Source of the DNA: a virus
Direction: 5' to 3' (one strand)
UHGV virus genome: UHGV-0180947
Length of the DNA: 16,067 nt
Shown: positions 2,142 through 16,067 of the stretch, in pieces
How positions within the stretch are numbered: the stretch's first letter is position 1
Layout of the letters: each line of letters starts with the position of its first letter
Notes under the pieces: generated by a model
Database searches by the model: none
Told to the model about the DNA's origin: nothing
The model's input: only the letters and a program-made list of their open reading frames with translations
Program-made: the position numbers and the translations under genes

Positions 2142-3763
2142 CAGGCCTGTCTCCCTAGCAGCTCCCAGATGTTCAGGGCTGAATTCATTGGCGCGTAGCT
2201 GATCATCACCGAGTCGGCGAGGTTCGGCGACTTGGTGCCGTCAGGCTGTTTATCAACAACGATTTTCCCCACACCGTTAATGGAATAGGTCGGTTGCGAC
2301 AGCTCGATGATGAGTTTGTCTTTGCTCGCCATGGCGCTGCTGATTGAGATAATTTCGTCCGGGTTGTAGGCCATTCCCTCAACCACGGCGCGATAGGTGT
2401 TCTGGAAAAGCTTGCGTAATTGCCACCAGCTCTGGGCCTTGGCGTTAGCAAAGAAGTCCTTGTTCAGGCGGGCGGCCTGTCCGTTGTCGCCGCGCACCGC
2501 TTCGTCGTCCGGATCAAACACCGCGCCGCTACCGCGAAACGGTGTGGCGAGTATTGACGGTCGGCGCGCAGCGTTACGCAGTTCGTTGATGGCGCGTGCA
2601 TCGCCGCGAACGCCAGCGCCCAGGCCGTCCTCGTCGAAGCGAAATTCTTCGAGGTTGTCCTGTTCGCAAAAGCCGAAGACCTTCTCAACGGACTGGTAAA
2701 TGTCGCTGCCCACGCCGGACCATTCCCGCACGTTCTCCAGGAGGAAGCCGTGACGGGTCGAAAAGGCGTTTTTGTCCCGGCCTTCGTCGGCGACGTCCAT
2801 CGCGCCCAGTCGCTTGCCCGTTGGCTGAATACCAAGTTTGATATGCGCGTCGACGGCAGCCTGTACCCAGTCGGACGGGATCAGGACGCCTTCCGCAGAT
2901 GCGCTGTAGTTCAGGTCAAGTTCCTGCGCCACCACCACCGGATTGTCGATTTTCTCGCACTCCCTGCGATACCACTCTTCATCCTTGCGCGGGTCATCTC
3001 GCCAGTGGAACGTGAATACTGGTATTTTTCCGCCGTGGCGCTTCTGCGCGAACGGGTTCGCCATGCCATTAACCGAGCTCAGGTCAATACGGCAACGGGT
3101 GGTTTGCGACAGCGCCGCATCAATCAACAGAGGACGCTGGAGGAATGCAGCTTCATCCACCAGGTAGAGCGTGGTACGGTCACCACGTCCGATATTGTCG
3201 CCAGCCTCGCCTTTGATAACCGCGCCAGTATCGGGAAACTCAACGCGCATGTACGGCGCGTGCTTCTTCTCGTCCCACGAACCGCGAAACTCGACGGGCA
3301 GCGTTTCCACGAACTTGCGCGCCTTCCAGAACAGCGCCTTCGGGTCTCCGGTGCTGTCGACGTATTCCTCTTTACGGGAGCCGAAGCCGATGACCATTTC
3401 TTTGTTGAAGAGGCAGAGCGAACAGGCCAGCCCGATCGCCGTCCAGCTGAGCCCCATTTCGCGGCTCTTTTCGGTGATGCCGTTCTCCAGCCGTTCGCGC
3501 CGCTCCATGATCCAGTGAATCCACTCTTCCTGTTTCGGAAACAGCAGAAAAGGGATGGTGACCGGCAGGCCATAATCGATGTTACGCGGGTCAGTAGTCA
3601 TCCCCCAGTCGATGATGAACTGTGCCGGGTTGGTGCGGTAAAACTGCTTTAGCGCTGGCAGCATTTCAGGGTTCTGGCGAATGCGCTGTAAGCGCTCCAT
3701 CCGCCATTCAAAAACCATCTGGTAATCAGGATGTTTAAAATCGAAGGGGAATGGTAACGGCAT
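2141..3763 (-). CDS. terL: Terminase large subunit
   Basis: 540-aa ORF with an N-terminus (…[37 protein letters not shown]…) typical of enterobacterial lambdoid large terminases; lies directly after the small terminase. Confidence 0.88.
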
Positions 3764-3765
3764 AC

Positions 3766-4317
3766 TTAGCCCATCATTTTTCTATACGCCTCTGCAGCCT
3801 GCTCCGGCGTTAAGTTGGTAATTTCTGTTCTGACTGGTCCTCCATCAGCGCCAGTCACTTCATTTTTGACGTTGTCTTTAAACGCCTGAACAGAAACATG
3901 ACGCCCAAGCAACTCAAGGTTTTTAACCTTATCAGGCCATTTGATTTTCTTCAGAAGTGCGGCGCTATCTGCGGATACCATCTCCACGACATCCATTCCT
4001 GATAGCGTTGTGCGCCATACCTTAGGCCAGTCTTTGATGGGTTTTAGCTCACCGTTTTGCAGGAGAATGTCAAGCACATCCATCTGGTCGATTTCAATAA
4101 GGCGATTAAGTACATATTCTGCATTAATACCAACAAGATCATTGCGTTGCGCTTTCAGTTCGGCGATTCTTAACTTGATGTCAGGTTTTGACAGGTTTTC
4201 GGATGCGGTACGGTTAGCTGTCTTTGCGCTGTACCCCGCCCGAATAGCCGCTTGCGTGGCGTTTAAATCGATGAGGTACTCGCGACAGAACATTTCTTGT
4301 TTGTCGGTGAGTGCCAT
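3766..4317 (-). CDS. terS: Terminase small subunit
   Basis: 183-aa ORF ([30 protein letters not shown]…) with an HTH-like N-terminus, immediately upstream of terL; resembles P27-type small terminases. The segment looks lower in GC than terL. Confidence 0.75.
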
Positions 4318-4344
4318 GTATCTCTCTCTTAAAAAGGAAGCTTT

Positions 4345-4554
4345 ATGTCAAAAAATCCACGTACCCCTAAATTTAAAATCGGCGACATTGTTTATTTGGT
4401 TTCAGGCGGCCCGGCGATGGCTGTTCAGGAGCCAATCATAAACAGCTTTGATGTTTTTGTTGGTGATTACTGGTGTCAGTGGTTTTCAGGAAGGAAGCAA
4501 GAAAGAGCCAGATTTCCAGAAGAATCACTGACTGCTACCAACCCAAAGCCGTAA
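4345..4554 (+). CDS. Small DUF2158 (YodC)-like protein
   Basis: 69-aa ORF with an AAGGAAG Shine-Dalgarno 5 nt upstream. Motif KIGDIVYLVSGGPAMAV…CQWFSG matches the GDxVxLKSGGPxMTV…CxWF pattern of YodC-like proteins. It is opposite in strand to the surrounding late genes. Confidence 0.55.
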   Translation: MSKNPRTPKFKIGDIVYLVSGGPAMAVQEPIINSFDVFVGDYWCQWFSGRKQERARFPEESLTATNPKP

Positions 4555-4589
4555 ACCCAAACGCACTCAAGTTGTCTCTTACAGACGTG

Positions 4590-4838
4590 ATGAAGTGGAT
4601 GATGGCTCAGTTAGAATATGACGGTTGCCTGTATCAGGAAGACGTAGTTGATTATTTAGTCAAACTCGATAATGAGCAGTTTCTGAAAGAAAATGCTGAT
4701 GGTAATCTTGTTTTATCTACACCTGTCATTACCCAATTCCGCAAAGTAAGCGGTGATAAAGTGGTTTGGGTTAAGCCTGAACGATATTGGCGTTATCGCG
4801 TTAATGAAGATGAGCCTGGTCGCGAAGCGCGCGGGTAA
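4590..4838 (+). CDS. Hypothetical protein (second gene of the plus-strand insert)
   Basis: The ORF track gives 4473..4838, but that extension overlaps the previous gene by 82 nt in another frame. The ATG at 4590 gives an 82-aa product (MKWMMAQLEYDG…). No family recognised. A hairpin with a T-rich tail follows at about 4847-4880. Confidence 0.45.
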   Translation: MKWMMAQLEYDGCLYQEDVVDYLVKLDNEQFLKENADGNLVLSTPVITQFRKVSGDKVVWVKPERYWRYRVNEDEPGREARG

Positions 4839-4964
4839 ATAATCTGTGGTGACTCTGTTTTATGGTCACCATTCTTATTCGACGAAATCACAGTCCGGTT
4901 TTGTCATAATTTTGTCCTCGCCTTGACATTATCGAGCCACCTCTGGAAGTGGCTCTGTAATGCC

Positions 4965-5432
4965 TTACTTCAGGCATTGCGTGGTGATGTATTCCTGCAG
5001 GGCTCTCAGGGCTGTTTGGTCGCTGAGGATTCCGGATCGGATACCGAGAACGTTTCGTCCAGCAACTGCAGAGAGTTCGACGGTGGCATCATCGCCCATG
5101 CTGGAGGCGCCGGTGGTTTGGGTTGAGGCTGACACTGGACATTTGCCTTTGACGAGCACCCGACCACCATTATCAAGCTTGCGCTGCAGAGCATCATTTT
5201 CAGCTTTTGCATCGGCTAATTCCTTCGTGTATTTGGCATCGAGCGCTGCGACGTCTCTCTGACGGGTCTGCATGTCAGCGATGGTGTCTTTCGCCAGGCT
5301 GAGCTGCTCAGTCACTTTATCGCGCTGCCTTTTGAACTCGGTGGCGTTGTCATGGTAGTGGCTAGCCAACCATCCGAGACTGACTATCAGGCAGATCACA
5401 ATGGCGCTGATAATGGTAGTTAATCGGCTCAT
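4965..5432 (-). CDS. Rz: Rz-type i-spanin (lysis)
   Basis: N-terminus [21 protein letters not shown]…[26 protein letters not shown] closely matches lambda Rz. The start at 5432 forms an ATGA overlap with the endolysin stop; the ORF track's longer start at 5450 would overlap the endolysin. Confidence 0.85.
5006..5212 (-). CDS. Rz1: Rz1-type o-spanin lipoprotein, embedded in Rz in another frame
   Basis: [21 protein letters not shown]…[14 protein letters not shown] closely matches lambda Rz1: signal peptide, lipobox VVGC, proline-rich mature region. It lies wholly inside Rz, as in lambda. Confidence 0.8.
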
Positions 5433-5938
5433 TTCTGCCCCCACAAACAAACTTCACGCTCAATCTCGCGGCGAGTTACCAGGCCTTTCCACTGCTTGCC
5501 CTTGGCGTAAGTCCAGCGGCGCAGCTGGTCGCACGCACCTTTCTGGTCGCCCTGGTTGATTTTGCGCAGCAGCGTGGAGGTCTGGAAGTTTCCAGCGCCG
5601 ACGTTATACGCGAATGAGTACAGAGCCCCGCGCATTATTTCGGGGATCGGCTTCTGGATGTATGGGTTAATCTGGCGGGCAACGGTGTTCAGGTCTTTGC
5701 TGAGTAGCGCACGGCATTCAGCCTCGGTGTACTTCTTGCCGAGCATGATATCTTTGCCAGTGTGGCCATAACAGACCGTCCAGACGCCTACCACATCCTG
5801 ATAAGGAACATATCGCACACCTTCAAGACCATCGTTACCGGTTGGGCCAGTGATGAGCGCAGAGGCAATGGCTATGGCGCCACCGCCGCCGGCGATCACG
5901 CCAATCAGTTTATTCCTCATTGATGGCGTCATGCTCAC
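5429..5938 (-). CDS. SAR endolysin (phage lysozyme with N-terminal signal-anchor-release domain)
   Basis: 169-aa ORF. The Gly/Ala-rich N-terminal segment [51 protein letters not shown] is very close to phage 21 R21 and P1 Lyz and carries the E…D…T catalytic residues. Its start overlaps the holin stop (ATGA). Confidence 0.9.
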
Positions 5939-6249
5939 CCCTGTGTATCACTTGCGATCCGCTTCAAGGCCTCGGTTACCACTTCGGCTGAAGCCGGGCG
6001 GTCACCTCCAGGCTTTGCGGAGACATCAGCCAGATAACTGGCCAACAGCTGCGTGCGTTTTTTCTCTTCATCCAGTCGCTCTCGCTCTTCCTTGCGCTTT
6101 GCGTAATACGTCTTGATTGTGAAGAAGGCAGAGATCAGGGCGCCAATGATGAAGACATAATCCTGCAGACTCAGGACGGAAAAGATACCAAGCAAGGCTG
6201 ACCACCAGTAAGGCAGATTGTGACCATCGGTTGGGTTCATACGTTGCAT
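5935..6249 (-). CDS. Holin (class II / pinholin-like)
   Basis: 104-aa ORF with two hydrophobic segments ([30 protein letters not shown]) and a charged C-terminus, directly upstream of and overlapping the SAR endolysin; strong GGAGGTGA Shine-Dalgarno. Confidence 0.75.
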
Positions 6250-6276
6250 CTCTCACCTCCGATAATGTTCGGGGTG

Positions 6277-6843
6277 CTATCTGTAGTCAGTAAAAGGTTC
6301 AGGGCCGTCGGGCTGATTTTCCGGGGATACCTTTCCCTGTTTTTGGGGATGGTTATCCCTGTTTTCAGGGATGGTTGGCGCGGCTATTCTGCTATCCCTA
6401 ATTTCAGGGATGGTGATAACCTGCGTTTCAACTTCAGCGACCGGAAAACTCACCGGACATTTAGGGCATTTCGGTTTGGTATAAGCCCATGCATCCAGAC
6501 AGGTGTTGATCCCGATGTATCGTGTTTGCCCAATCCTGCGAACCTTGATGATGTTGCGATAAGCAAGGCTGAGAACCGCTTCAGAAACGTGCTTAACCGC
6601 CAGCATGGTTTTGTCAGCGATGAGGCTGTTAGCGATCCGGTCTTCTTTTTTCGACCAGCCATACGTCAGGCGAACAATTGCATTCAGCACGCGAAATTCG
6701 CGCCCCGAAAGCTCCACTACACACAAGGCGTCCTGAATCTGGTTAGCAAGGCGCAGATAGCCATTGTCCAGATCAGCCATGCGACTCTCCTGCTGTACCT
6801 TTTCCGGCACAGGGAAATTGATTACTTCGGCAGTATTTGCCAT
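6277..6843 (-). CDS. O: Lambda-O-like replication initiator, N-terminal DNA-binding domain plus origin linker only
   Basis: N-terminus MANTAEVINF…RMADLDNGYLRLAN…LSGREFRVLNAIVRLTYGWSKKEDRI aligns with lambda O (…RNVADLDDGYARLSN…LTKRQFKVLLAILRKTYGWNKPMDRI). It is 188 aa against 299 in lambda O, and the C-terminal P-interaction domain is absent. Confidence 0.8.
   Translation of the reverse strand: MANTAEVINFPVPEKVQQESRMADLDNGYLRLANQIQDALCVVELSGREFRVLNAIVRLTYGWSKKEDRIANSLIADKTMLAVKHVSEAVLSLAYRNIIKVRRIGQTRYIGINTCLDAWAYTKPKCPKCPVSFPVAEVETQVITIPEIRDSRIAAPTIPENRDNHPQKQGKVSPENQPDGPEPFTDYR
6317..6413. repeat. Origin iterons (ori-lambda-like) inside the O-like gene
   Basis: Three near-identical 19-bp palindromic repeats: TCCCTGTTTTTGGGGATGG (6334-6352), TCCCTGTTTTCAGGGATGG (6356-6374), TCCCTAATTTCAGGGATGG (6395-6413), plus a degenerate copy near 6317-6331. 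Lambda iterons have the form TCCCTC…GAGGGA. Confidence 0.7.
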
Positions 6844-6928
6844 AATTACTCCTGTGAATTTGTTCAGTTAATTCGCGTAGAAAGCCGTTAGTGTTCTCGC
6901 ACTGCGGCTTTCGCCCTTCTGTTTCCAC

Positions 6929-7150
6929 TCATGCTTCAAAATCACCTTTCTCTCCCGGCCTGTTAGAAATCAGGATGGCCAGCAGTAGCGACATGTTCGG
7001 CAGCAGACTTTCCCGCCAGCGACTCACCGTCGACTTATTCACTCCGGCCACTTTGGCGATATTCGTGGTTCCCAGTTCAGCTATCTGGCTGTGTAACCAG
7101 CTTTCTATCCTGCGAGCCTCCACTTTGTTGCGTGTCGTTGAACTCTCCAT
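6929..7150 (-). CDS. cII: CII-like transcriptional activator
   Basis: …RNKVEARRIESWLHSQIAELGTTNIAKVAGVNKSTVSRWRESLLPNMSLLLAIL aligns with lambda CII (…RNEALRIESALLNKIAMLGTEKTAEAVGVDKSQISRWKRDWIPKFSMLLAVL); sits between cro and O as in lambda. Confidence 0.85.
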   Translation of the reverse strand: MESSTTRNKVEARRIESWLHSQIAELGTTNIAKVAGVNKSTVSRWRESLLPNMSLLLAILISNRPGEKGDFEA

Positions 7151-7229
7151 TTGTGATACTTCCTCTGGTGGTGTTTGGAATGGCTGAATTACTCAGTCAG
7201 AACCCGCTGACTGCTCAATTCAGCTTTGT

Positions 7230-7421
7230 TTAATCAGGATTTCTGTTATGTGGGAAAGGCTTGATCTCCTCAGCCTTAATTTTTCCATCAGGCAGGGTGT
7301 TAACGAAAATCTTCCGCCCTACCCGGATAGCTTTACTAATTGCGGTCTGGTGAACGCCGATGGCATCAGCAGCTCTTGCCTGTCCAACTTCGTCAACGTA
7401 TTCAGCTAAAGAAATTTTCAT
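7230..7421 (-). CDS. cro: Cro-like repressor
   Basis: 63-aa product MKISLAEYVDEVGQARAADAIGVHQTAISKAIRVGRKIFVNTLPDGKIKAEEIKPFPHNRNPD aligns along its length with lambda Cro. The ORF track's 133-aa version is an upstream TTG extension through the operator region and is not credible. Start coordinate is within 1 nt. Confidence 0.85.
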   Translation of the reverse strand: MKISLAEYVDEVGQARAADAIGVHQTAISKAIRVGRKIFVNTLPDGKIKAEEIKPFPHNRNPD

Positions 7422-7448
7422 GTGGTTAGCTCCTATCAACTCATGAGT

Positions 7449-7516
7449 AAACAATACCACAAGTATTAAACATTGCAATACCGCGAGTATTTTTAAAATA
7501 AGAACATTGGTATTAC
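7449..7516. promoter_or_regulatory. Operator cluster (OR1-OR3-like) with divergent promoters for cro and cI
   Basis: 15-bp inverted repeats AATACCACAAGTATT (7453-7467) and AATACCGCGAGTATT (7477-7491), and a degenerate AAGAACATTGGTATT (7500-7514), spaced about 24 bp apart. A TTGCAA -35-like hexamer lies in the middle site and a TATTGT -10 candidate for the cro strand in the cro-proximal site. Exact promoter hexamers are tentative. Confidence 0.6.
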
Positions 7517-7525
7517 TATTTGAAA

Positions 7526-8236
7526 ATGGAAAAGAAAAAGACACTGACATCGGCTCAGATCGCTGACGCAGAAAGGCTGAAAGCCCTCTATGAAGCCAAG
7601 AAAAAAGAGCTTGGGATAACACAGCAATCAATAGCTGACATGCTAGACATATCTCAGGGGGGCGTTGGGCATTACTTGAATGGCAGGAATGCCCTTAATG
7701 CTGCCGTGGCTGCTGTTTTTGCCAGAGCCCTCCAGGTGGATGTCTCTGATTTTAGCCCCAGCCTTGCGAAAGAAATATCTGCAATGAGTGCTTCCGCTAC
7801 ATCGAATGCCAAGTATGCAGGCCAGTACACCCAAGGCATTAAATACCCTGTATTAAGCAAGATTCAGGCTGGGCATTGGTCGGAAGCGTGCGAGCCGTAT
7901 GCACTTAAAGATATCGATCTATGGCTAGAATCAGACGCTCACATCCAGGGGGATGCGTTCTGGTTGTTGGTCGAGGGGGAATCCATGACTGCCCCGGTCG
8001 GGCTCAGCATACCAGAGGGTACCTACGTTTTGTTTGATACCGGCCGAGAGCCAGTAAATGGCAGCCTTGTGATCGCAAAGCTATCCGAATCAAACGAAGC
8101 GACATTCAAAAAGCTGATTATTGATGGGGGCCAGAAGTACCTGAAGGGCTTAAACCCTCAATGGCCATTGGTTCCCATCAACGGAAACTGTCGAATCATT
8201 GGTGTGGCAGTAGAAACTAAGTTAAGGCTTGTGTGA
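7526..8236 (+). CDS. cI: CI-type repressor (HTH plus S24 LexA-like autopeptidase domain)
   Basis: Aligns with lambda CI over its whole length (…LTSAQIADAERLKALYEAKKKELGITQQSIADMLDISQGGVGHYLNGRNALNA…, …FWLLVEGESMTAP…, …TFKKLI…), including the Ser and Lys of the autocleavage dyad. ATG at 7526 with almost no leader; the ORF track's TTG at 7520 is the upstream alternative. Confidence 0.9.
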   Translation: MEKKKTLTSAQIADAERLKALYEAKKKELGITQQSIADMLDISQGGVGHYLNGRNALNAAVAAVFARALQVDVSDFSPSLAKEISAMSASATSNAKYAGQYTQGIKYPVLSKIQAGHWSEACEPYALKDIDLWLESDAHIQGDAFWLLVEGESMTAPVGLSIPEGTYVLFDTGREPVNGSLVIAKLSESNEATFKKLIIDGGQKYLKGLNPQWPLVPINGNCRIIGVAVETKLRLV

Positions 8237-8328
8237 TCGGCAGCATGCCGCAGACGTACAGGAAGCATGGGTAGCCACTTACGTTCGTTTTATCCTTGAT
8301 AAAATGAATTACAACGTATTAAAAAATA

Positions 8329-8616
8329 TTGAATTTTGGAGATAAACAATTGACTGAACGAAACCCGTCACTTACCCCTCAGCACATGACTGCGACCTCA
8401 ACCATTTTGACTCCTGGAAAGGATGAGGTTGTAATTACGTTTTACTCTCATGAATTTACTTATCTTTTACCAGAAAACGTTCAACCGCAAACTGGCATTC
8501 AGGTTAAAGTAGATCTGAGGCCTGAGATTGGTATTTCACTTACAACAGACCAAGCAATTGCGCTTACGAAGGCTCTTAAAACCAATTTGGAAGCGAATGG
8601 ACTTTGGAAACAGTAA
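8329..8616 (+). CDS. Hypothetical protein, first gene downstream of cI
   Basis: ORF-track TTG start at 8329; an in-frame TTG at 8350 with a GGAG Shine-Dalgarno 8 nt upstream is the more plausible start (88 aa). No family recognised. Looks markedly AT-rich against the structural genes. Confidence 0.45.
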   Translation: MNFGDKQLTERNPSLTPQHMTATSTILTPGKDEVVITFYSHEFTYLLPENVQPQTGIQVKVDLRPEIGISLTTDQAIALTKALKTNLEANGLWKQ

Positions 8617-9152
8617 ATCCTGGTTCGGATAATACAACTGTTACGCCTTCAAGTGGTAAGGCGGGATTTGTTATGCCGGGAATTATGGTTAGCGCAGCAT
8701 TAGCCGCGTCGATGGCGCCTTCCTATGGAAGCGTACCTCAGTACCAAATTGCTTTTGAAGATGCTAGTCTTACCAGTAGACCATATGACAAATTTACCAG
8801 TCTGCCGCTGGATAAAGAGACCGAATCACATGGAAGCAGTGTAAACTTGGAGGCCGATGTGAGCTCAGCAAGCAGAGAGGAGATCGACGCAAAACTGGCC
8901 TTGACAAAGGCTGAGATTGAACTATCTCAGGCTCATAACTTTTCGTCAATTGAAAAGCTATTGATTGAAGTTAAAGGAGAAATAGCGTCTTTACGGGGAG
9001 AGCTGTCTGGTAATAAAGATGCTGTCTCTGGGCAAATAGACGGGCTAAAAACATCTATTTCAACGATGCAATGGATGGTGGGGACTGTTCTTGCCATGAT
9101 GGGTATTGCTGTCGCTATTTTAGCCATTCCCGGAATCGATAAACTCCTGTGA
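8604..9152 (+). CDS. Hypothetical coiled-coil protein with one C-terminal transmembrane helix
   Basis: ORF-track TTG at 8604; an ATG at 8673 would give 159 aa. Central region (…EEIDAKLALTKAEIELSQAHNFSSIEKLLIEVKGEIASLRGELSGNKDAVSGQIDGLKTSIST…) is predicted coiled coil, followed by MQWMVGTVLAMMGIAVAILAIPGI. A terminator follows. Confidence 0.5.
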   Translation: METVNPGSDNTTVTPSSGKAGFVMPGIMVSAALAASMAPSYGSVPQYQIAFEDASLTSRPYDKFTSLPLDKETESHGSSVNLEADVSSASREEIDAKLALTKAEIELSQAHNFSSIEKLLIEVKGEIASLRGELSGNKDAVSGQIDGLKTSISTMQWMVGTVLAMMGIAVAILAIPGIDKLL

Positions 9153-9158
9153 TCACCC

Positions 9159-9184
9159 AACCCGGCCACCGCGCCGGGTTTTTA
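9159..9184 (+). terminator. Rho-independent terminator ending the cI operon
   Basis: AACCCGGC-CACCGC-GCCGGGTT stem-loop followed by TTTTT, 7 nt after the stop of the 8604-9152 ORF. Confidence 0.7.
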
Positions 9185-9463
9185 CTGCCCTACTCTTCCC
9201 GCAACATCAGCACATCCAGTGCCAGCTCCACAGCCAGATCGACCTGGTCTTCCTGTCACAACACCTGAATCATCTCTATCAGCGCCTCTCTTGAGGGCTC
9301 GCGCTTCTCAACCAGCAGCTGCATAACCGCTATCCCGATAACCTGCGCTATCTGCGGGTGCATTTCTGCGAAAAACTCATCCTCATTTGACATGCCAACA
9401 CCCCTTTATGATTTTTTTTTGAGCATAACAGCACTTTTTACAAAAATAAATTAACTTTAAAAT

Positions 9464-9731: not shown

Positions 9732-9838
9732 GCAGAAACGGCATTCGTTCACTGATTTACTGCCTGCTGATCTGCGGCATTATCTGGACAGCGTTGATTA
9801 TCAAAATTCTGCACGTTACGGGGGTGTTCAATGGTTAG
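9728..9838 (+). CDS. Short hydrophobic peptide (36 aa)
   Basis: Below the ORF-track cutoff. Its ATG overlaps the previous stop (ATGA); product MSRNGIRSLIYCLLICGIIWTALIIKILHVTGVFNG is a single predicted transmembrane helix. Confidence 0.3.
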   Translation: MSRNGIRSLIYCLLICGIIWTALIIKILHVTGVFNG

Positions 9839-10037
9839 TCATCACTACGGTACACAGACAGTAAACCGCGGCGCAGTTCAGCCGGGGATGCTTGTAAAAC
9901 ACAAAGACTCAACCTGGACCGCATCTGCTAACGCACGCGGTCGCCTGTATCTTCACCGTGGCATCGAACGTACCTACACCAAAGATTTGCTGGTTGAGGT
10001 TTATCTAAACGGTTTAGGTCATGGCCTTAGCCATTAA
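9831..10037 (+). CDS. Hypothetical small basic protein (68 aa)
   Basis: ORF-track ORF whose start overlaps the end of the preceding peptide ORF by 8 nt; no family recognised. Confidence 0.4.
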   Translation: MVSHHYGTQTVNRGAVQPGMLVKHKDSTWTASANARGRLYLHRGIERTYTKDLLVEVYLNGLGHGLSH

Positions 10038-10048
10038 CGGAGTGAGTT

Positions 10049-10210
10049 ATGCAGGAGAAAAAATGCGCGTACTGCCGCAAGCCGATCAAGCAAGGGAAGG
10101 AAGTTAAAAACGAACTGCTCTTTATCCACGGCACGCAGTTGAAACGCGAGCAACGTGATTACTGTTCAGTACGTTGCGCTTCGTTCGACCAGATGGCCCA
10201 CGAAGCATAA
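10049..10210 (+). CDS. Small Cys-rich (zinc-ribbon-like) protein (53 aa)
   Basis: Below the ORF-track cutoff. ATG at 10049 with a GGAGTGAG Shine-Dalgarno-like stretch upstream; product MQEKKCAYCRKPIKQGKEVKNELLFIHGTQLKREQRDYCSVRCASFDQMAHEA has CxxC and CxxxC pairs. Confidence 0.45.
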   Translation: MQEKKCAYCRKPIKQGKEVKNELLFIHGTQLKREQRDYCSVRCASFDQMAHEA

Positions 10211-10348
10211 CGAAAACCCCGCGCAAGGCGGGATTCACGTCCGGTGCCACCGACCAAAGTTACACCGGAATTTATACCAAACCAAAAAACATCCAATGGG
10301 CGCTATCTCTGGCCCGGGGATTCTAACACTCAAAAAAGAGGATCTCAC

Positions 10349-13183
10349 ATGGAATTTTTCCATCTGATAAAAGCCAGTCAGAAGTCTGGCAAGAAAGATG
10401 CAGTGATTTGGTTCACTGCGAAAAGTGTAGCGCGCGCCAATCTCCAACTCGATGTGGCACTGGAAGAAGCCGGAATTGAAGAAACTGGCCGCGGTAAAGA
10501 TTATGCCAAACCAATCCGCACCGATTTCCCGGTATATGACGACCTGCCGGAAGAAGGCGCAGTGGATTACACCTGGTGCAAACGCTACGAACTGCAGAAC
10601 GATGACCGCACCTGGCTGCCAAAAGTCACAGCTGAAAACTCTGACGAGAAAACGGCTCAGACCGTTGATAGTCACATAACTACTGAGTCAACGCTGCCAG
10701 AAACCGCTGGCATCACGCTGGACGAACACGACGACGACTCAACCCTCTACCCGGTAGTGCAGATGCCGTTTCGTAAGCAACTGCTTTCCCAGTTCACCGC
10801 CGACGAACTGCGCCACCACGTAACCCGCGAAGAGTACGAAGCTATCGGCGCGCTGGAGATGGACACTGATAACAGTTACGTCCAGAACTTGCTGTTAGCT
10901 GCTGAGAACTGCCCGGAAGTGAAGGGTTACGACACCAAAGACCTGTGGCGCTACACCGATGCCATTCGCAAAGTGTTCAGCCAGGACAAGCGTCACGAAC
11001 TCGCGCTGGTACTCCGTTTCACCAGAATGTGGGCGGCGACTGATTACATTGACCGTGGCATCCTGGCGCGTGAATGGGCTGCCGGTAATCACATCAGTAG
11101 TGTTCAGCGCACTGACGCAGGTACCAATGCCGATGGTGGATATGTCACCGACCGCGGCGAAGGTGCGCATCACACGCTGGACACACTGGATCTGGAGATC
11201 GCCTGTGCCCTGCTGCCGATGGATTTCAACCACCTTGAGATCCCGGGCAGCATTCACCGTCGCGCCAAAGAAATCGTGGCGAAAAAAGAAGAGCCCTGGA
11301 AATCATGGAGCGCCCTTCTGCGTAACCAGCCTGGCGTTCTGTCGGTAAACCGTGCGGCCATTTTCAACCTGGTACGGATCGCACCGGAAAACATTCATCG
11401 TACGCCGGCGGCCCATCTGGAGTTCGTTAACCAGACCATGACCGCTGAGTTTAACGCCGCAACTGAACTGATGCCCCTGCGCGCGTCCGCGGTTCAGACG
11501 CAAGTAGAGGTTGAGGAACCAACAGCTCAGCCGCAGGTCGCGAACCTCGGCGGTGGCATGTTCTCCATCAATGGCCTGTTGAGTGGAAATACTAACCCGG
11601 TCATCAATATTCCCTCAAATGAAGCAGAAAAACCGGAAACCGTAGTGGAGACCACCAGCGATGTGCAGATGGAAGCGACTCAGCCAGAGAAAGACAAAAC
11701 TGTTGATACGGTACCACCAGGCGAAAGCGCTGATGCAACTGATCCGCAAACAGATACCCTGAACCCGGCTGAGGTGCTCTCCGCCGCGGCGCCGGAGCTG
11801 GCGAACGCCACTACGCAGGAATTGACCACCGAAGCATCAGAGGAGAAAGCGAGCGCGCCGGAAGAGCAACCTTCACAACCGGTCCCGGAATACCCGGCGT
11901 ACTTCGAACCGGGCCGCTATGAAGGCGTGCCGAATGACGTTTATCACGCGGCGAACGGGATCAGTTCCACCCAGGTGAAGGATGCCAGGGTCAGCCTGAT
12001 GTACTTCAACGCGCGCCACGTCGCCAAAACTATCCCGCGGGCCCCTTCCAAGGTGCTGGACATGGGTAATCTGGTTCACGCCCTGGCGCTGCAGCCTGAA
12101 AACCTTGAGGCAGAGTTCAGCGTGGAGCCGGAGATCCCGGAAGATGCTTTTACTACCACCGCCACCCTGCGCGAGTTCATCGATTCGCACAACGCCACCC
12201 TGCCGGCACTGCTGAGCACTGACGATATCAAAGCGCTGCTTGAAGAGCACAACGCCACCCTGCCCGCGCAGCTGCCGCTGGGCGCCAGCCTGGAGGAAAC
12301 GGCCCAGAGCTATATGGCTTTGCCGGCAGAGTACCAGCGCATCGAGCCAGACCAGAAGCAGACCGCAGCAGCTATGAAAGCCTGCATCAAAGAGTACAAC
12401 GCCACCCTGCCCGCGCCGGTTAAAACCAGCGGCAGCCGCGATGCGCTGCTTGAACAGCTGGCAATCATCAACCCTGACCTGGTGGAGCAGGAAGCCCAGA
12501 AGCCGGCACCGCTTAAGGTGTCCGGCAGCAAAGCGGAAATGATCCAAGCGATTAAGTCGGTTAAACCCGATGCCGTATTCGCCGACGAGCTGCTGGACGC
12601 CTGGCGAGAAAATCCGGGCGACAAGATTCTGGTGACGCGCCAGCAGCTGGTGACCGCCCAGGCCATCCAGTCGGCCCTGCTGGCACACCCGACCGCAGGC
12701 ATGCTGCTAACCCACCCGAGCCGCGCCGTTGAGGTGAGCTACTTTGGCTTTGACGAGGAGACGGGACTGGAAGTTCGTGTGCGCCCTGACCTTGAGATCG
12801 ACCTAGACGGCGTGCGTATCGGTGCTGACCTGAAAACCATCAGCATGTGGAATGTTAAGCAGGAAAGCCTGCGCGCCAGGCTACACCGGGAAATTATTGA
12901 ACGTGATTATCACCTGAGCGCGGCTATGTACTGCGAAACCGCAGCGCTGGATCAGTTCTTCTGGATTTTCGTCAACAAAGACGAGAACTACCACTGGATC
13001 GCCATCATCGAGGCATCCGCTGAACTACTGGAGCTGGGTATGCTCGAGTACCGCAAAGCGATGCACAATATCGCAACCGGATTCGACACAGGTGAATGGC
13101 CAGCGCCAATCACTGCTGACTACACCGACGAACTGAACGACTTCGACCTGCGCCGCCTTGAAGCGCTGCGTACTCAGGCATAA
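10349..13183 (+). CDS. recE: RecE-like exodeoxyribonuclease VIII
   Basis: 944 aa from the ATG at 10349 (AAGAGGA Shine-Dalgarno); the ORF-track start at 10244 is an upstream GTG extension. N-terminal and central regions align with Rac RecE (…DAVIWFTAKS…NFPVYDDLPEEGAVDYTW…, …DRGEGAHHTLD…), and the C-terminus has a PD-(D/E)xK nuclease core. Confidence 0.85.
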   Translation: MEFFHLIKASQKSGKKDAVIWFTAKSVARANLQLDVALEEAGIEETGRGKDYAKPIRTDFPVYDDLPEEGAVDYTWCKRYELQNDDRTWLPKVTAENSDEKTAQTVDSHITTESTLPETAGITLDEHDDDSTLYPVVQMPFRKQLLSQFTADELRHHVTREEYEAIGALEMDTDNSYVQNLLLAAENCPEVKGYDTKDLWRYTDAIRKVFSQDKRHELALVLRFTRMWAATDYIDRGILAREWAAGNHISSVQRTDAGTNADGGYVTDRGEGAHHTLDTLDLEIACALLPMDFNHLEIPGSIHRRAKEIVAKKEEPWKSWSALLRNQPGVLSVNRAAIFNLVRIAPENIHRTPAAHLEFVNQTMTAEFNAATELMPLRASAVQTQVEVEEPTAQPQVANLGGGMFSINGLLSGNTNPVINIPSNEAEKPETVVETTSDVQMEATQPEKDKTVDTVPPGESADATDPQTDTLNPAEVLSAAAPELANATTQELTTEASEEKASAPEEQPSQPVPEYPAYFEPGRYEGVPNDVYHAANGISSTQVKDARVSLMYFNARHVAKTIPRAPSKVLDMGNLVHALALQPENLEAEFSVEPEIPEDAFTTTATLREFIDSHNATLPALLSTDDIKALLEEHNATLPAQLPLGASLEETAQSYMALPAEYQRIEPDQKQTAAAMKACIKEYNATLPAPVKTSGSRDALLEQLAIINPDLVEQEAQKPAPLKVSGSKAEMIQAIKSVKPDAVFADELLDAWRENPGDKILVTRQQLVTAQAIQSALLAHPTAGMLLTHPSRAVEVSYFGFDEETGLEVRVRPDLEIDLDGVRIGADLKTISMWNVKQESLRARLHREIIERDYHLSAAMYCETAALDQFFWIFVNKDENYHWIAIIEASAELLELGMLEYRKAMHNIATGFDTGEWPAPITADYTDELNDFDLRRLEALRTQA

Positions 13184-13188
13184 GGGGA

Positions 13189-14307
13189 ATGATGATGGAA
13201 AACACGAATATCGTAACCGCTGAACAGCAGACTCCAAACACGATCTCAGCCAGCAATGCCATTTTCAACGTGCAGGCTTTAACCCAGCTTCAGTCTGTCG
13301 CCGGGTTGATGGCACAGGCAGCCGTAACGGTGCCTGAGCACCTCCGCGGCAATCCGGCAGACTGCATGGCCATCATCATGCAGGCGATGCAGTGGGGTAT
13401 GAACCCTTACGCCGTGGCGCAAAAGACGCACCTGGTTAACGGTGTCCTGGGATACGAAGCGCAACTGGTTAATGCGGTGATCTCCAGCTCAAACGCCATC
13501 GTTGGCCGCTTTCACTATGAGTACGAGGGCGACTGGTCGAAATGTGCCAGCAGCCGCGAGATAACCGTTAAAAAGCCTGCGAAAGGTGGCGGGACGTACG
13601 ACAAGAAAGAAATGGTACGCGGTTGGGAAAGTGCTGATGAACAAGGACTGTCGGTACGGGTAGGTGCCGTTATTCGCGGTGAAAGTGATATCACCTGGGG
13701 AGAGCCTGTTTTCCTCTCCAGCGTAATCACACGTAATTCTCCACTTTGGGTATCAAACCCGAAACAGCAGATCGCTTATCTGGCACTCAAATACTGGGCG
13801 CGCCTGTATTGCCCTGCAGTTGTTCTTGGTGTGTACACCCCTGATGAGATTGAACAGCGCACAGAAAAAGAGATCAACCCAACGCCGCAACGCGTTAGCC
13901 TGGCTGATATCTCAGGTGACACCGTCACAACCACGCAAAGCGCACAGGAATCGTCGGTAAATGTCGGCTCTCTTGCCGATGATTTCCGCGAACGCATCGA
14001 ATCTGCTCAGGACGTGGATAGCGCCAAATCGCTGCGTGCCGACATTGAAACGGCGAAAGCTACGCTGGGATCCGCACTATTCACCGAGCTGAAAAACAAA
14101 GCCGTAAAGCGTTATTACCTAGTGGATGCACGCAACAAGGTTGAGGAGGCTATTAAATCCCTGCCCCAGCCCGACGAGCCGCATGCAGCCGAACGGTTCG
14201 CTGAAGCCGAGCGCATGCTTGCATCTTCAAAGCGTCACTTAGGCGATGAACTGCACGATCAATTCAGCATCACCCTGGCGGATATGAAACCGGAATACGT
14301 GGCCTGA
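13189..14307 (+). CDS. recT: RecT/Bet-family single-strand annealing recombinase
   Basis: Immediately follows recE. Motif …PADCMAIIMQAMQWGMNPYAVAQKTHLVNGVLGYE… resembles lambda Bet (…QFIALLIVANQYGLNPWTKEIYAF…). The third ATG, at 13195, is best placed relative to the AAGGGG Shine-Dalgarno. Confidence 0.8.
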   Translation: MMMENTNIVTAEQQTPNTISASNAIFNVQALTQLQSVAGLMAQAAVTVPEHLRGNPADCMAIIMQAMQWGMNPYAVAQKTHLVNGVLGYEAQLVNAVISSSNAIVGRFHYEYEGDWSKCASSREITVKKPAKGGGTYDKKEMVRGWESADEQGLSVRVGAVIRGESDITWGEPVFLSSVITRNSPLWVSNPKQQIAYLALKYWARLYCPAVVLGVYTPDEIEQRTEKEINPTPQRVSLADISGDTVTTTQSAQESSVNVGSLADDFRERIESAQDVDSAKSLRADIETAKATLGSALFTELKNKAVKRYYLVDARNKVEEAIKSLPQPDEPHAAERFAEAERMLASSKRHLGDELHDQFSITLADMKPEYVA

Positions 14308-14345
14308 CGAGACCGGGAGGGGTAACCCTCCCTCAAGGAGATTAT

Positions 14346-14588
14346 ATGCGACTGATCAATCGAGGAAGTAAGCAATCACCTTTAGCTCGCCAAGCATGCG
14401 ACATCGCGCTGGCAGCTCACTTGCAAACATATGGCGACTATGGGCGAAGCAAGATGAAAGAGACTTATACGGTGAAGGTTGAAGGCGTGAAAGTCTGGGT
14501 GGAGGTGGTGAACCGAAAGGCGAGCTACGTGGCCACAGCGATGACCGGCATGCGCCGTCTCCGCTCCCTGCCCGGGCAGGTTGGTTGA
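14346..14588 (+). CDS. Hypothetical small protein (80 aa)
   Basis: ORF with a CAAGGAG Shine-Dalgarno, between recT and the excisionase, where Rac carries ydaC and ralR; no family recognised from sequence. Confidence 0.5.
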   Translation: MRLINRGSKQSPLARQACDIALAAHLQTYGDYGRSKMKETYTVKVEGVKVWVEVVNRKASYVATAMTGMRRLRSLPGQVG

Positions 14589-14629
14589 AAAAGATTTTGA
14601 ATGGCCCGAACGGGCAACTGGAGAGAGCT

Positions 14630-14827
14630 ATGGATGATATTTTGGTAACGTCAGACCTGACCAGTCGCTACAAAATTTCACGCAAAACCCTTTGGTCATG
14701 GCAAAGTGCAGACACAATGCCTCGGGGCTTCGTATGCCCGTTCCCACCCCCTGACTGGCCCGGCAACCCTAACCGCTGGCGCTCTGAGTCAATCAAAGAG
14801 TGGGAGGATAAAAAGAAGATAAATTAA
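14630..14827 (+). CDS. AlpA-family excisionase / transcriptional regulator
   Basis: 65 aa from the ATG at 14630 (GGAGAG Shine-Dalgarno). The sequence [26 protein letters not shown]… is typical of AlpA/Xis proteins paired with P4-type integrases; its 3' end converges on the integrase stop. Confidence 0.7.
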
Positions 14828-16017
14828 CTGAAGGGCTCTCCGATGATCTCTTCAAGATGGCTCTGCCAAACGCGGAGCCAGTGTTTCTGATCATCGATAT
14901 AGTCATGAAGGTTGTAATGCGCCATAACCCCCACCATCTGATGCCCGAGCAGCTTTTCAATTACGTGCGGCGGGCAACCTAACTCAGAGAGATTTGTGGC
15001 TATCGTCCGCCTCATATCATGAAGCGACCACTCTGCCATACCTGTTCCATTCCAAATAGAACGGGCGTAATTGGATGCCACAGGTGAATGAACGGGCGAA
15101 TCTTTGATCCCGCCATCAATTTTACGTTGTGAAGTCACCAGGTGATTGGTGTTTATTTTCTTGAGGTGATTTCTGACCAAGTTAACGGCGGCGTCTGAGA
15201 GCCCCCTTCTAATATGTACCCGAGTTTTATAACTGCCCGCAGGCACGACCCACTCATTATCATCCAATCGAAACCATGATCTCTCACTAAGTCGAATCTC
15301 AGCCGTACGGCATCCGGTAAGCATAATAAATTTCACCAGGAAAACGGACTCTATCGACATATGGCTTTTCAACCACTGATAGATTTTGCGCAGATCGTCA
15401 TCGTCCATCCTGCGAGTTCTCTTTTTAGGCTTTTGCCCGACATCAGATGGCAGTAATCCCTCGAGTGGGTTTGAGGCGATCACACTTCTGTTAACGCAGA
15501 ACCTAAACGCCCGTTTGCACAGCGAAAGCATGTAATGAGCCATCACCCTGCTTTCTATAGAATCGAAGACGTTGATCCAGTGCATTTTCGCTGTGTTATC
15601 GACTTTGACATTCTTCATCGGTTCGGCGATATGTTTCTCAAACACCTGGCGATAGTAATCGACTTTAACTAGCCCGTTAGCGATACAGTGCCTTTCAATC
15701 CAGTAATTGAACGCTTCGGCAACGGACATCGCTTCCTGTCGGGTCTGCTTATCCAGCTTCACCTGCTCTCGCGGATCCAGTCCCTCAGTTAACCAGTTTC
15801 TGAATTGTTGGCGACGCTCTCTTGCCTGGGTGATACTCATTGCAGGATAATCACCAACATTGAGTTTTACCGCTTTACCGGCCCAGCGATACCGATAGAA
15901 AAATGATATTTTTCCGGCCTGGCTGATTCTGGCGTTGAGCCCGTGCGAATCAGAAATAATCTCGATATCATCTCTTTTCTTGCCGAGCGCCTTCCTGAGC
16001 TTTGTGTCGGTGATCAT
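14824..16017 (-). CDS. int: Tyrosine integrase, P4-type
   Basis: N-terminal arm-binding pattern [20 protein letters not shown]…[10 protein letters not shown]…, and a C-terminal catalytic region with the conserved R…HxxR…Y residues (…[11 protein letters not shown]…[18 protein letters not shown]…). The ORF track's GTG start at 16062 is probably an extension; ATG at 16017 or 16032 is more likely. Confidence 0.88.
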
Positions 16018-16067
16018 TGAATGGGTACACATTTTTGTTTTTGGGTACACAAAAGTGTACACAAAGT

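Follow-up and report, generated by a model that had tools for sequence, protein, structure and literature searches.

In bacteriophage lambda, the initiator O contacts the helicase loader P via the C-terminal part of O, and the gene that follows O is P. Deletions of the lambda nin5 type lie to the right of the replication genes and remove terminators, altering the reach of the early transcript; O, P, Q and the origin are kept, and the phage is viable. Contact of the lambda initiator with the loader P has been described (PMC11087808), and unwinding of the origin requires an AT-rich tract, the iterons by themselves being insufficient (PMC7466680). DLP12 of E. coli K-12, the nearest described defective lambdoid prophage with a whole lysis operon, has kept its complete holin–endolysin–spanin genes while most lytic functions are gone, and the operon is reportedly under a Q-type antiterminator, RpoE and Hha (PMC7918800). 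Rac, also of E. coli K-12, excises but is lost, being unable to replicate (PMC11879457).

The locus reported here lies in a window of 16,067 nt, the whole stretch of DNA that was analysed (virus genome UHGV-0180947), and very probably results from one illegitimate deletion of about 7.2 kb, with a 2-nt microhomology, in a lambdoid E. coli prophage beside kch. Its truncated initiator ORF (O′) shares with lambda O and ori-lambda the PF04492 N-terminal domain, in-gene iterons that align with those of lambda, the order cI-cro-cII-O and a pO/oop-like element at the start of the gene. In contrast to lambda, the window retains no more than the first 175 residues of a 339-aa relative and a truncated iteron 4, with neither AT-rich region nor C-terminal domain; and where P follows O in lambda, the intact relatives of the window carry a DUF6475 gene instead. 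The closest counterparts are E. coli/Klebsiella lambdoid prophages of the DY612 type (NZ_CP047469, 1.94-1.97 Mb; YZMc10-2; ECCRA-119), which are about 99.8% identical to the window at the DNA level over cI-cro-cII-O(1-175) and likewise over holin, endolysin and Rz; they keep 7.2 kb between these two segments, and their outer arms (recombination, terminase and head genes) are unlike those of the window. Unlike DLP12, the window element is without Q and the late promoter and has its lysis cassette right behind cro-cII-O′, while packaging and head genes are retained. With Rac it shares the left-arm content (integrase, DUF4060, recT, recE, ydaE and kil), but it has another integration site (here beside kch), other immunity and replication modules and another deletion. 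With nin5 it has in common the removal of downstream terminators, whereas Q, part of the origin and the gene in the P position are also deleted here. The features of the locus are as follows.

7526..8236, plus strand: cI-type repressor, divergent from cro; PF00717 (E=2.7e-22), PF01381 (HTH_3, E=1.2e-8), with a Peptidase_S24 self-cleaving domain
7422..7525, no strand: cI-cro intergenic region with repeated ATAC...GTAT operator-like half-palindromes, read from the sequence
within 7422..7525, minus strand: weak PR candidate, TTGCAA-16-TATTGT, 8/12 consensus positions
7230..7421, minus strand: cro; PF09048 Cro (E=1.3e-23)
6929..7150, minus strand: cII-type activator; PF05269 Phage_CII (E=9.5e-13)
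about 6853-6925, plus strand: oop-like antisense RNA with a strong terminal hairpin, ending just before the cII stop codon
6818-6846, plus strand: pO-like promoter, TTGATT-17-CATAAT with TG, inside the first codons of O′
6277..6843, minus strand: O′ initiator ORF, 188 aa; residues 1-175 of a 339-aa O-type protein plus 13 foreign residues
6394..6411, no strand: ori iteron 1, ATCCCTAATTTCAGGGAT; from the repeat family and alignment with lambda iteron 1
6355..6372, no strand: ori iteron 2, ATCCCTGTTTTCAGGGAT; from the repeat family and lambda alignment
6333..6350, no strand: ori iteron 3, TTCCCTGTTTTTGGGGAT; from the repeat family and lambda alignment
6318..6328, no strand: remnant of iteron 4, 11/18 nt kept, the TTCCCTG half (7 nt) gone
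6318..6319, no strand: deletion junction, TT common to both parental flanks; 7,224 bp missing relative to the DY612 prophage
6250..6317, minus strand: native holin leader, the 3′ end of a small ORF; gives the last 13 codons and stop of O′ and the holin ribosome-binding site
5935..6249, minus strand: holin; PHROG 1350 (E=2.7e-33), weak PF16080 match
5429..5932, minus strand: endolysin with a hydrophobic N-terminal segment; PF00959 Phage_lysozyme (E=9.6e-46)
4965..5432, minus strand: Rz-type spanin; PF03245 (E=6.8e-29)
5006..5212, minus strand: Rz1-like lipoprotein ORF, nested in Rz in another frame; its N-terminus resembles a lipoprotein signal

Every gene in the neighbourhood is on the minus strand, the repressor excepted. 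The repressor and the "LexA family protein" of the DY612 prophage share 99.8% identity, and close phage relatives of the endolysin are annotated as SAR or R21-like endolysins. The weak PR candidate, at 8/12 positions, falls below the threshold of the promoter scan, and we infer the PR assignment from it. In the gap between cro and cII (7186-7226, minus strand), at the position of lambda nutR/tR1, there is a long hairpin that lacks a U-run (GCTGAATTGAGCAGTCAGCGGGTTCTGACTGAGTAATTCAGC). The window has no recognisable N-like protein, both ORFs after cI being without a Pfam match. Beyond Rz, the plus strand at 4345-4838 carries a DUF2158 gene (69 aa) and a DUF6953 gene (82 aa as called on the 20.6-kb contig L003), situated between Rz and terS, convergent with the late genes and followed by a terminator-like hairpin (4881-4905, plus strand); the two appear to be an accessory cassette ("moron") that was inserted here. 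Past this pair come terS, terL and portal, and on the other side, past the repressor, the Rac-like arm (~9,800-16,062) carries kil, ydaE, recE, recT, DUF4060 and the integrase (14824-16062).

The joint was located by alignment with the intact DY612 prophage (L002). Window 4926-6319 corresponds to L002 3383-4776 with 99.79% identity and window 6318-8273 to L002 12001-13956 with 99.85% (BLAST), so that the coordinates overlap by 2 nt and L002 4777-12000, that is, 7,224 bp, is absent from the window. Consistently, the similarity of the lysis side to phage records ends at window 6322, and that of the O/immunity side to E. coli genomes begins at 6318. At the joint the window reads TCGGGCTGATTTTCCGGGGA, the lysis-side parent TCGGGCTGATTTacc and the O-side parent cctgTTTCCGGGGA; in detail, TCGGGCTGA-TTTT-CCGGGGA is found in the window, ...CTGATTT in the lysis flank and TTTCCGGGGA in the O flank, and the shared TT sits in an imperfect CTG(A)TTT match between the flanks. 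Such a 2-nt microhomology joint is typical of illegitimate, microhomology-mediated joining. The deletion thus has one end inside iteron 4, within the O gene, and the other 69 nt upstream of the holin start codon. A deletion scar had been one of two possibilities offered by an earlier, sequence-only reading of the window, and the presence of both flanks in one intact prophage, 7,224 bp apart, bears this out. That reading had placed the junction near 6250-6300, about 20-70 nt away from the 6318/6319 obtained here by alignment with the intact prophage, and had let the ORF stop just after the iterons, which does not agree with a break inside iteron 4. The deletion is read from a mosaic relative because DY612 shares the central module only, and no direct ancestor was found that combines the arms of the window with an intact centre.

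The N-terminal part of O′ is that of a genuine O-type initiator. Its residues 21-119 match the full 95-position profile of Pfam PF04492 Phage_rep_O (E=2.3e-28), it shares 41% identity with lambda O over residues 1-126 of the latter, and all 175 of its first 175 residues are identical to those of the DY612 O (175/175). However, O′ covers only profile positions 1-155 of 318 in PHROG 277 "replication initiation O-like" (E=2.3e-57), whereas the intact DY612 O covers positions 1-317, and residues 176-339, the C-terminal domain, are gone, so O′ does not belong to the family as a full-length member. Its last 13 residues (NQPDGPEPFTDYR) are not from O; they are the tail of the small ORF located in front of the holin in intact phages and annotated as hypothetical in Klebsiella phage MK448230. 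In the 90%-identity protein cluster of O′, which has 457 members, the listed proteins are of 339 aa, or of 318 aa with a later start codon; the 188-aa form occurs on 4-5 contigs only, while one intact member alone occurs on 303. The 318-aa form was considered as an iteron-number variant and rejected, as it reflects a different start-codon call. A PDB sequence search with O′ returned no solved relative. Truncation of the initiator with loss of its C-terminal domain, already proposed from the sequence, is thereby upheld, as is the spacing of 27 nt (6250-6276) between the O′ stop and the holin at 5935-6249; the length of 188 aa was also right, although the 299 aa of lambda O taken for comparison should be replaced by the 339-aa protein.

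The origin is disrupted by the same break. The iterons are 18-nt inverted repeats of the lambda type (ATCCCTnnnnnnAGGGAT), and their columns match lambda ori iterons 1-3 throughout. In an intact origin of this type, four iterons line up with lambda iterons 1-4, and the stretch behind them (69% AT) corresponds in the alignment to the AT-rich region of lambda. The window has three whole iterons and 11/18 nt of the fourth, that is, fewer than the four of an intact origin, while the intact iteron 4, TTCCCTGTTTCCGGGGAT, was present in all nine relatives examined. [quoted passage not shown] The pO-like site is the sole promoter-like site that the promoter scan returned in 3600-8400, and the pO/oop-like element aligns with lambda pO/oop, with a U-run weaker than that of lambda. 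The oop-like RNA is predicted to fold with -25.1 kcal/mol (z=-4.4); an Rfam scan of the whole window at the gathering threshold gave no match, leaving this RNA without family support. Judged by these alignments, the remnant belongs to the lambda O/ori family but is broken.

In DY612, the deleted block comprises the C-terminal 164 codons of O, the DUF6475 gene in the P position, ren, a ParB-like gene, several small genes, DUF1367, NinE, a metallophosphoesterase, NinG, YlcG, Q and two tRNAs; the AT-rich unwinding region, a candidate late promoter and all candidate terminators before the holin are also within it. Replacements were searched for by tblastn in the window and the identical 20.6-kb contig (L003). 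The queries were lambda P, ren, NinB, NinG and Q, the P of a Klebsiella phage, a loader of the DnaC type, DUF6475 and five Q proteins; none gave a hit better than E=0.077, in agreement with the earlier statement that a P/DnaC-like loader, the nin region and Q are missing. Similarly, the precomputed Pfam list of L003 contained no loader and no antiterminator. L003 covers 20.6 kb, from kch through the integrase to the head genes, of the 36.7-kb source contig; a loader or antiterminator in the last 13.4 kb of that contig, beyond the part searched, would be out of place in the gene order of a lambdoid phage. In intact relatives, DUF6475 (196 aa, PHROG 10105; L002 10917-11507 and L017 14917-15507) lies between O and ren. 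It may be an uncharacterised loader; a literature search for DUF6475 found no paper, and the helicase-loader paper PMC11087808 does not mention it.

The element is integrated in a host chromosome, as its integrase adjoins host genes and the flank on L003 shares 99.88% identity with E. coli sequence around kch. In the intact prophages of EH09-18-41 and YZMc10-2, which occupy this kch site too, the replication genes come first, then nin, Q and lysis, and this order is kept in all 10 prophages with an identical portal (10/10). With the loss of the origin, the C-terminal half of O, the P-position gene, nin and Q, which intact relatives need for the lytic cycle, the element as a whole fits a defective (cryptic) prophage. 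In one of the genomes with the identical portal (L009, 13553-21470), the head block is interrupted after a Pa193_gp24-like gene by an insert whose integrase, TumE-like gene and primase (Toprim/DUF927) are suggestive of a satellite or island within that prophage.

The window is 100% identical to ENA contig ERZ27227238 k141_1661, and the identical junction was found in a second assembly (ERZ28509015 NODE_117, L004), 11 SNPs apart. Ten of the 11 SNPs fall within 345 bp (window 9088-9432), at the end of a 182-aa ORF (8604-9152) and in the spacer after it, and this cluster resembles a short patch of recombination or a hypervariable site. The eleventh, the only one outside the cluster, changes endolysin codon 109 from TAT to TAA (Y109*) at L004 10653 (window 5606). 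This nonsense codon fits either selection against the PR-lysis arrangement or simple decay; as a single event in L004, for which the contig name gives about 10x coverage, it may be a sequencing error. Beyond these assemblies the junction is rare. It was absent from 50,697 phage records and 5,426 complete E. coli genomes, and exact searches found none in GTDB representatives (37-mer and 23-mer), JGI metagenome contigs or IMG/VR, while a positive control with the adjacent iteron sequence returned seven IMG/VR contigs, all with an intact origin. Inducible, plaque-forming relatives with the same O–holin junction, which the sequence-only reading had said would speak against its proposal, were thus encountered in none of these collections.

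The transcription of the lysis genes is likely affected as well. In the parent (L002), the region after Q has a promoter-like site (5278-5251) and terminator-like hairpins at 5249-5227 and 4841-4824, and the nin region has three terminator-like sites on the coding strand (9375-9340, 9239-9213 and 8888-8871). All five terminator-like sites fall within the deleted block, whose end is about 47 nt beyond the last hairpin. On the minus strand of the window, from the cI-cro region to Rz, the scan detected a single weak terminator-like site, which lies in the holin gene, and nothing promoter-like. The native sequence upstream of the holin amounts to 69 nt with no promoter-like site, and five Q types had no match, so that a Q-dependent late operon is not recognised. 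With no visible promoter or strong terminator from PR to Rz, no route to the lysis genes other than PR transcripts is apparent. Read-through from the cro promoter had been put forward as an alternative to a deletion scar; it fails as an alternative, since the candidate terminators between O and holin were deleted and PR read-through therefore follows from the same deletion. The read-through itself, like its fading before terS, is what we infer from consensus scans that are blind to Rho-dependent terminators and weak promoters.

From these features, the behaviour of the element can be predicted. Because the AT-rich tract, the C-terminal part of O and the loader are all gone, the element should not replicate: it would be unable to start its own replication, having neither the unwinding element nor the loader-recruiting domain nor the loader, and replication would be expected to fail even with replication proteins supplied in trans. 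Q-dependent late transcription should be impossible. Once the repressor is cleaved in the SOS response, holin, endolysin and spanins would be transcribed from PR only, as early genes, with the lysis cassette placed behind cro-cII-O′ and no recognisable intrinsic terminator between. Beyond Rz, the transcript would meet about 620 nt with no translation on its strand, a stretch that contains the opposite-strand pair at 4345-4838 and in which Rho should stop an unmodified polymerase, and transcription would probably fade before terS and the packaging genes. The expected phenotype would be SOS-triggered lysis with few or no particles.

Other origins of this arrangement were weighed against a single deletion. 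An assembly chimera is barely credible: the window is identical to a metagenome-assembly contig and no isolate genome with the junction was found among complete E. coli genomes and GTDB representatives, but the same junction is present in at least two assemblies that differ by 11 SNPs elsewhere and whose contig-name formats (k141_... vs. NODE_...) suggest different assembly software, the exact fusion protein is recorded on 4-5 contigs, and the flanks share 2 nt, too little for a k-mer assembler to misjoin. Illegitimate recombination between two phages, as when one superinfects a lysogen of the other, instead of a deletion within one prophage, is unlikely. Mosaicism is extensive among the lambdoid prophages here, the window and DY612 have different arms, and the lysis side also matches Klebsiella phages at 94-95%; nevertheless, one prophage has both flanks in the same order and orientation at 99.8%, which makes a single deletion the simplest account, and the product would lack the same functions either way.

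Two further explanations would give the arrangement a function. It is very improbable that the layout is a natural, working one, that is, a phage or satellite that borrows its loader and antiterminator from a helper. The packaging and head genes do look intact and identical to those of full prophages, but the break cuts an iteron and an ORF and leaves a 13-residue foreign tail, replication proteins acting in trans would meet no complete origin as the unwinding element is gone, the junction occurs in no phage record or IMG/VR contig, and a phage-sized element with lysis genes is unlike known E. coli satellites. Classification as a satellite (PICI or capsid-forming PICI) was also tried and rejected, given the absence of a replication module, the full lysis cassette, the head genes of an ordinary prophage and the in-gene break. 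That the remnant is under selection as a module useful to the host, either as an SOS-triggered lysis or release device or as a block on same-origin phages via O′, the iterons and the oop-like RNA, has only a small chance of being right. The repressor, cro, cII, the pO/oop-like element, the O′ N-terminal domain, three iterons and the lysis genes are all intact; plasmids with lambda oop and iterons block the plating of phages of the lambda replication type, the AT-rich part being unneeded (PMC3349717), and the transcribed lysis module of DLP12 affects vesicle production (PMC7918800). Against this, the junction is very rare (4-5 contigs; 0/5,426 complete E. coli genomes), the endolysin already has a nonsense codon in one lineage, and divergence is too small to give a signal of long-term conservation. 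Moreover, the inhibition in lambda needs iterons 3-4 (PMC3349717), and with iteron 4 cut in the window only a weak version of an oop/iteron-type inhibition might be expected. It is just as doubtful that the deletion made a compact SOS-controlled module which the lineage has kept, combining PR-driven lysis without Q or replication with O′/iteron/oop-like interference with same-origin phages; if true, such a module could possibly release cell contents or a few particles packaged in place.

The deletion of about 7.2 kb within one prophage is ordinary prophage decay, rare and recent; this specific deletion is undescribed, and its kind is well known. Internal disabling deletions are common in prophages, and the significance of this one is mostly small. 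As to annotation, the 188-aa "replication protein" should be flagged as a truncated fusion pseudogene and the prophage as defective. The value of the locus is that of a clean example, in which the parental flanks are known at 99.8% and the joint is mapped to the base inside an origin iteron, and in which a side effect of the deletion is to leave a complete lysis cassette directly behind the early promoter with no terminator between.
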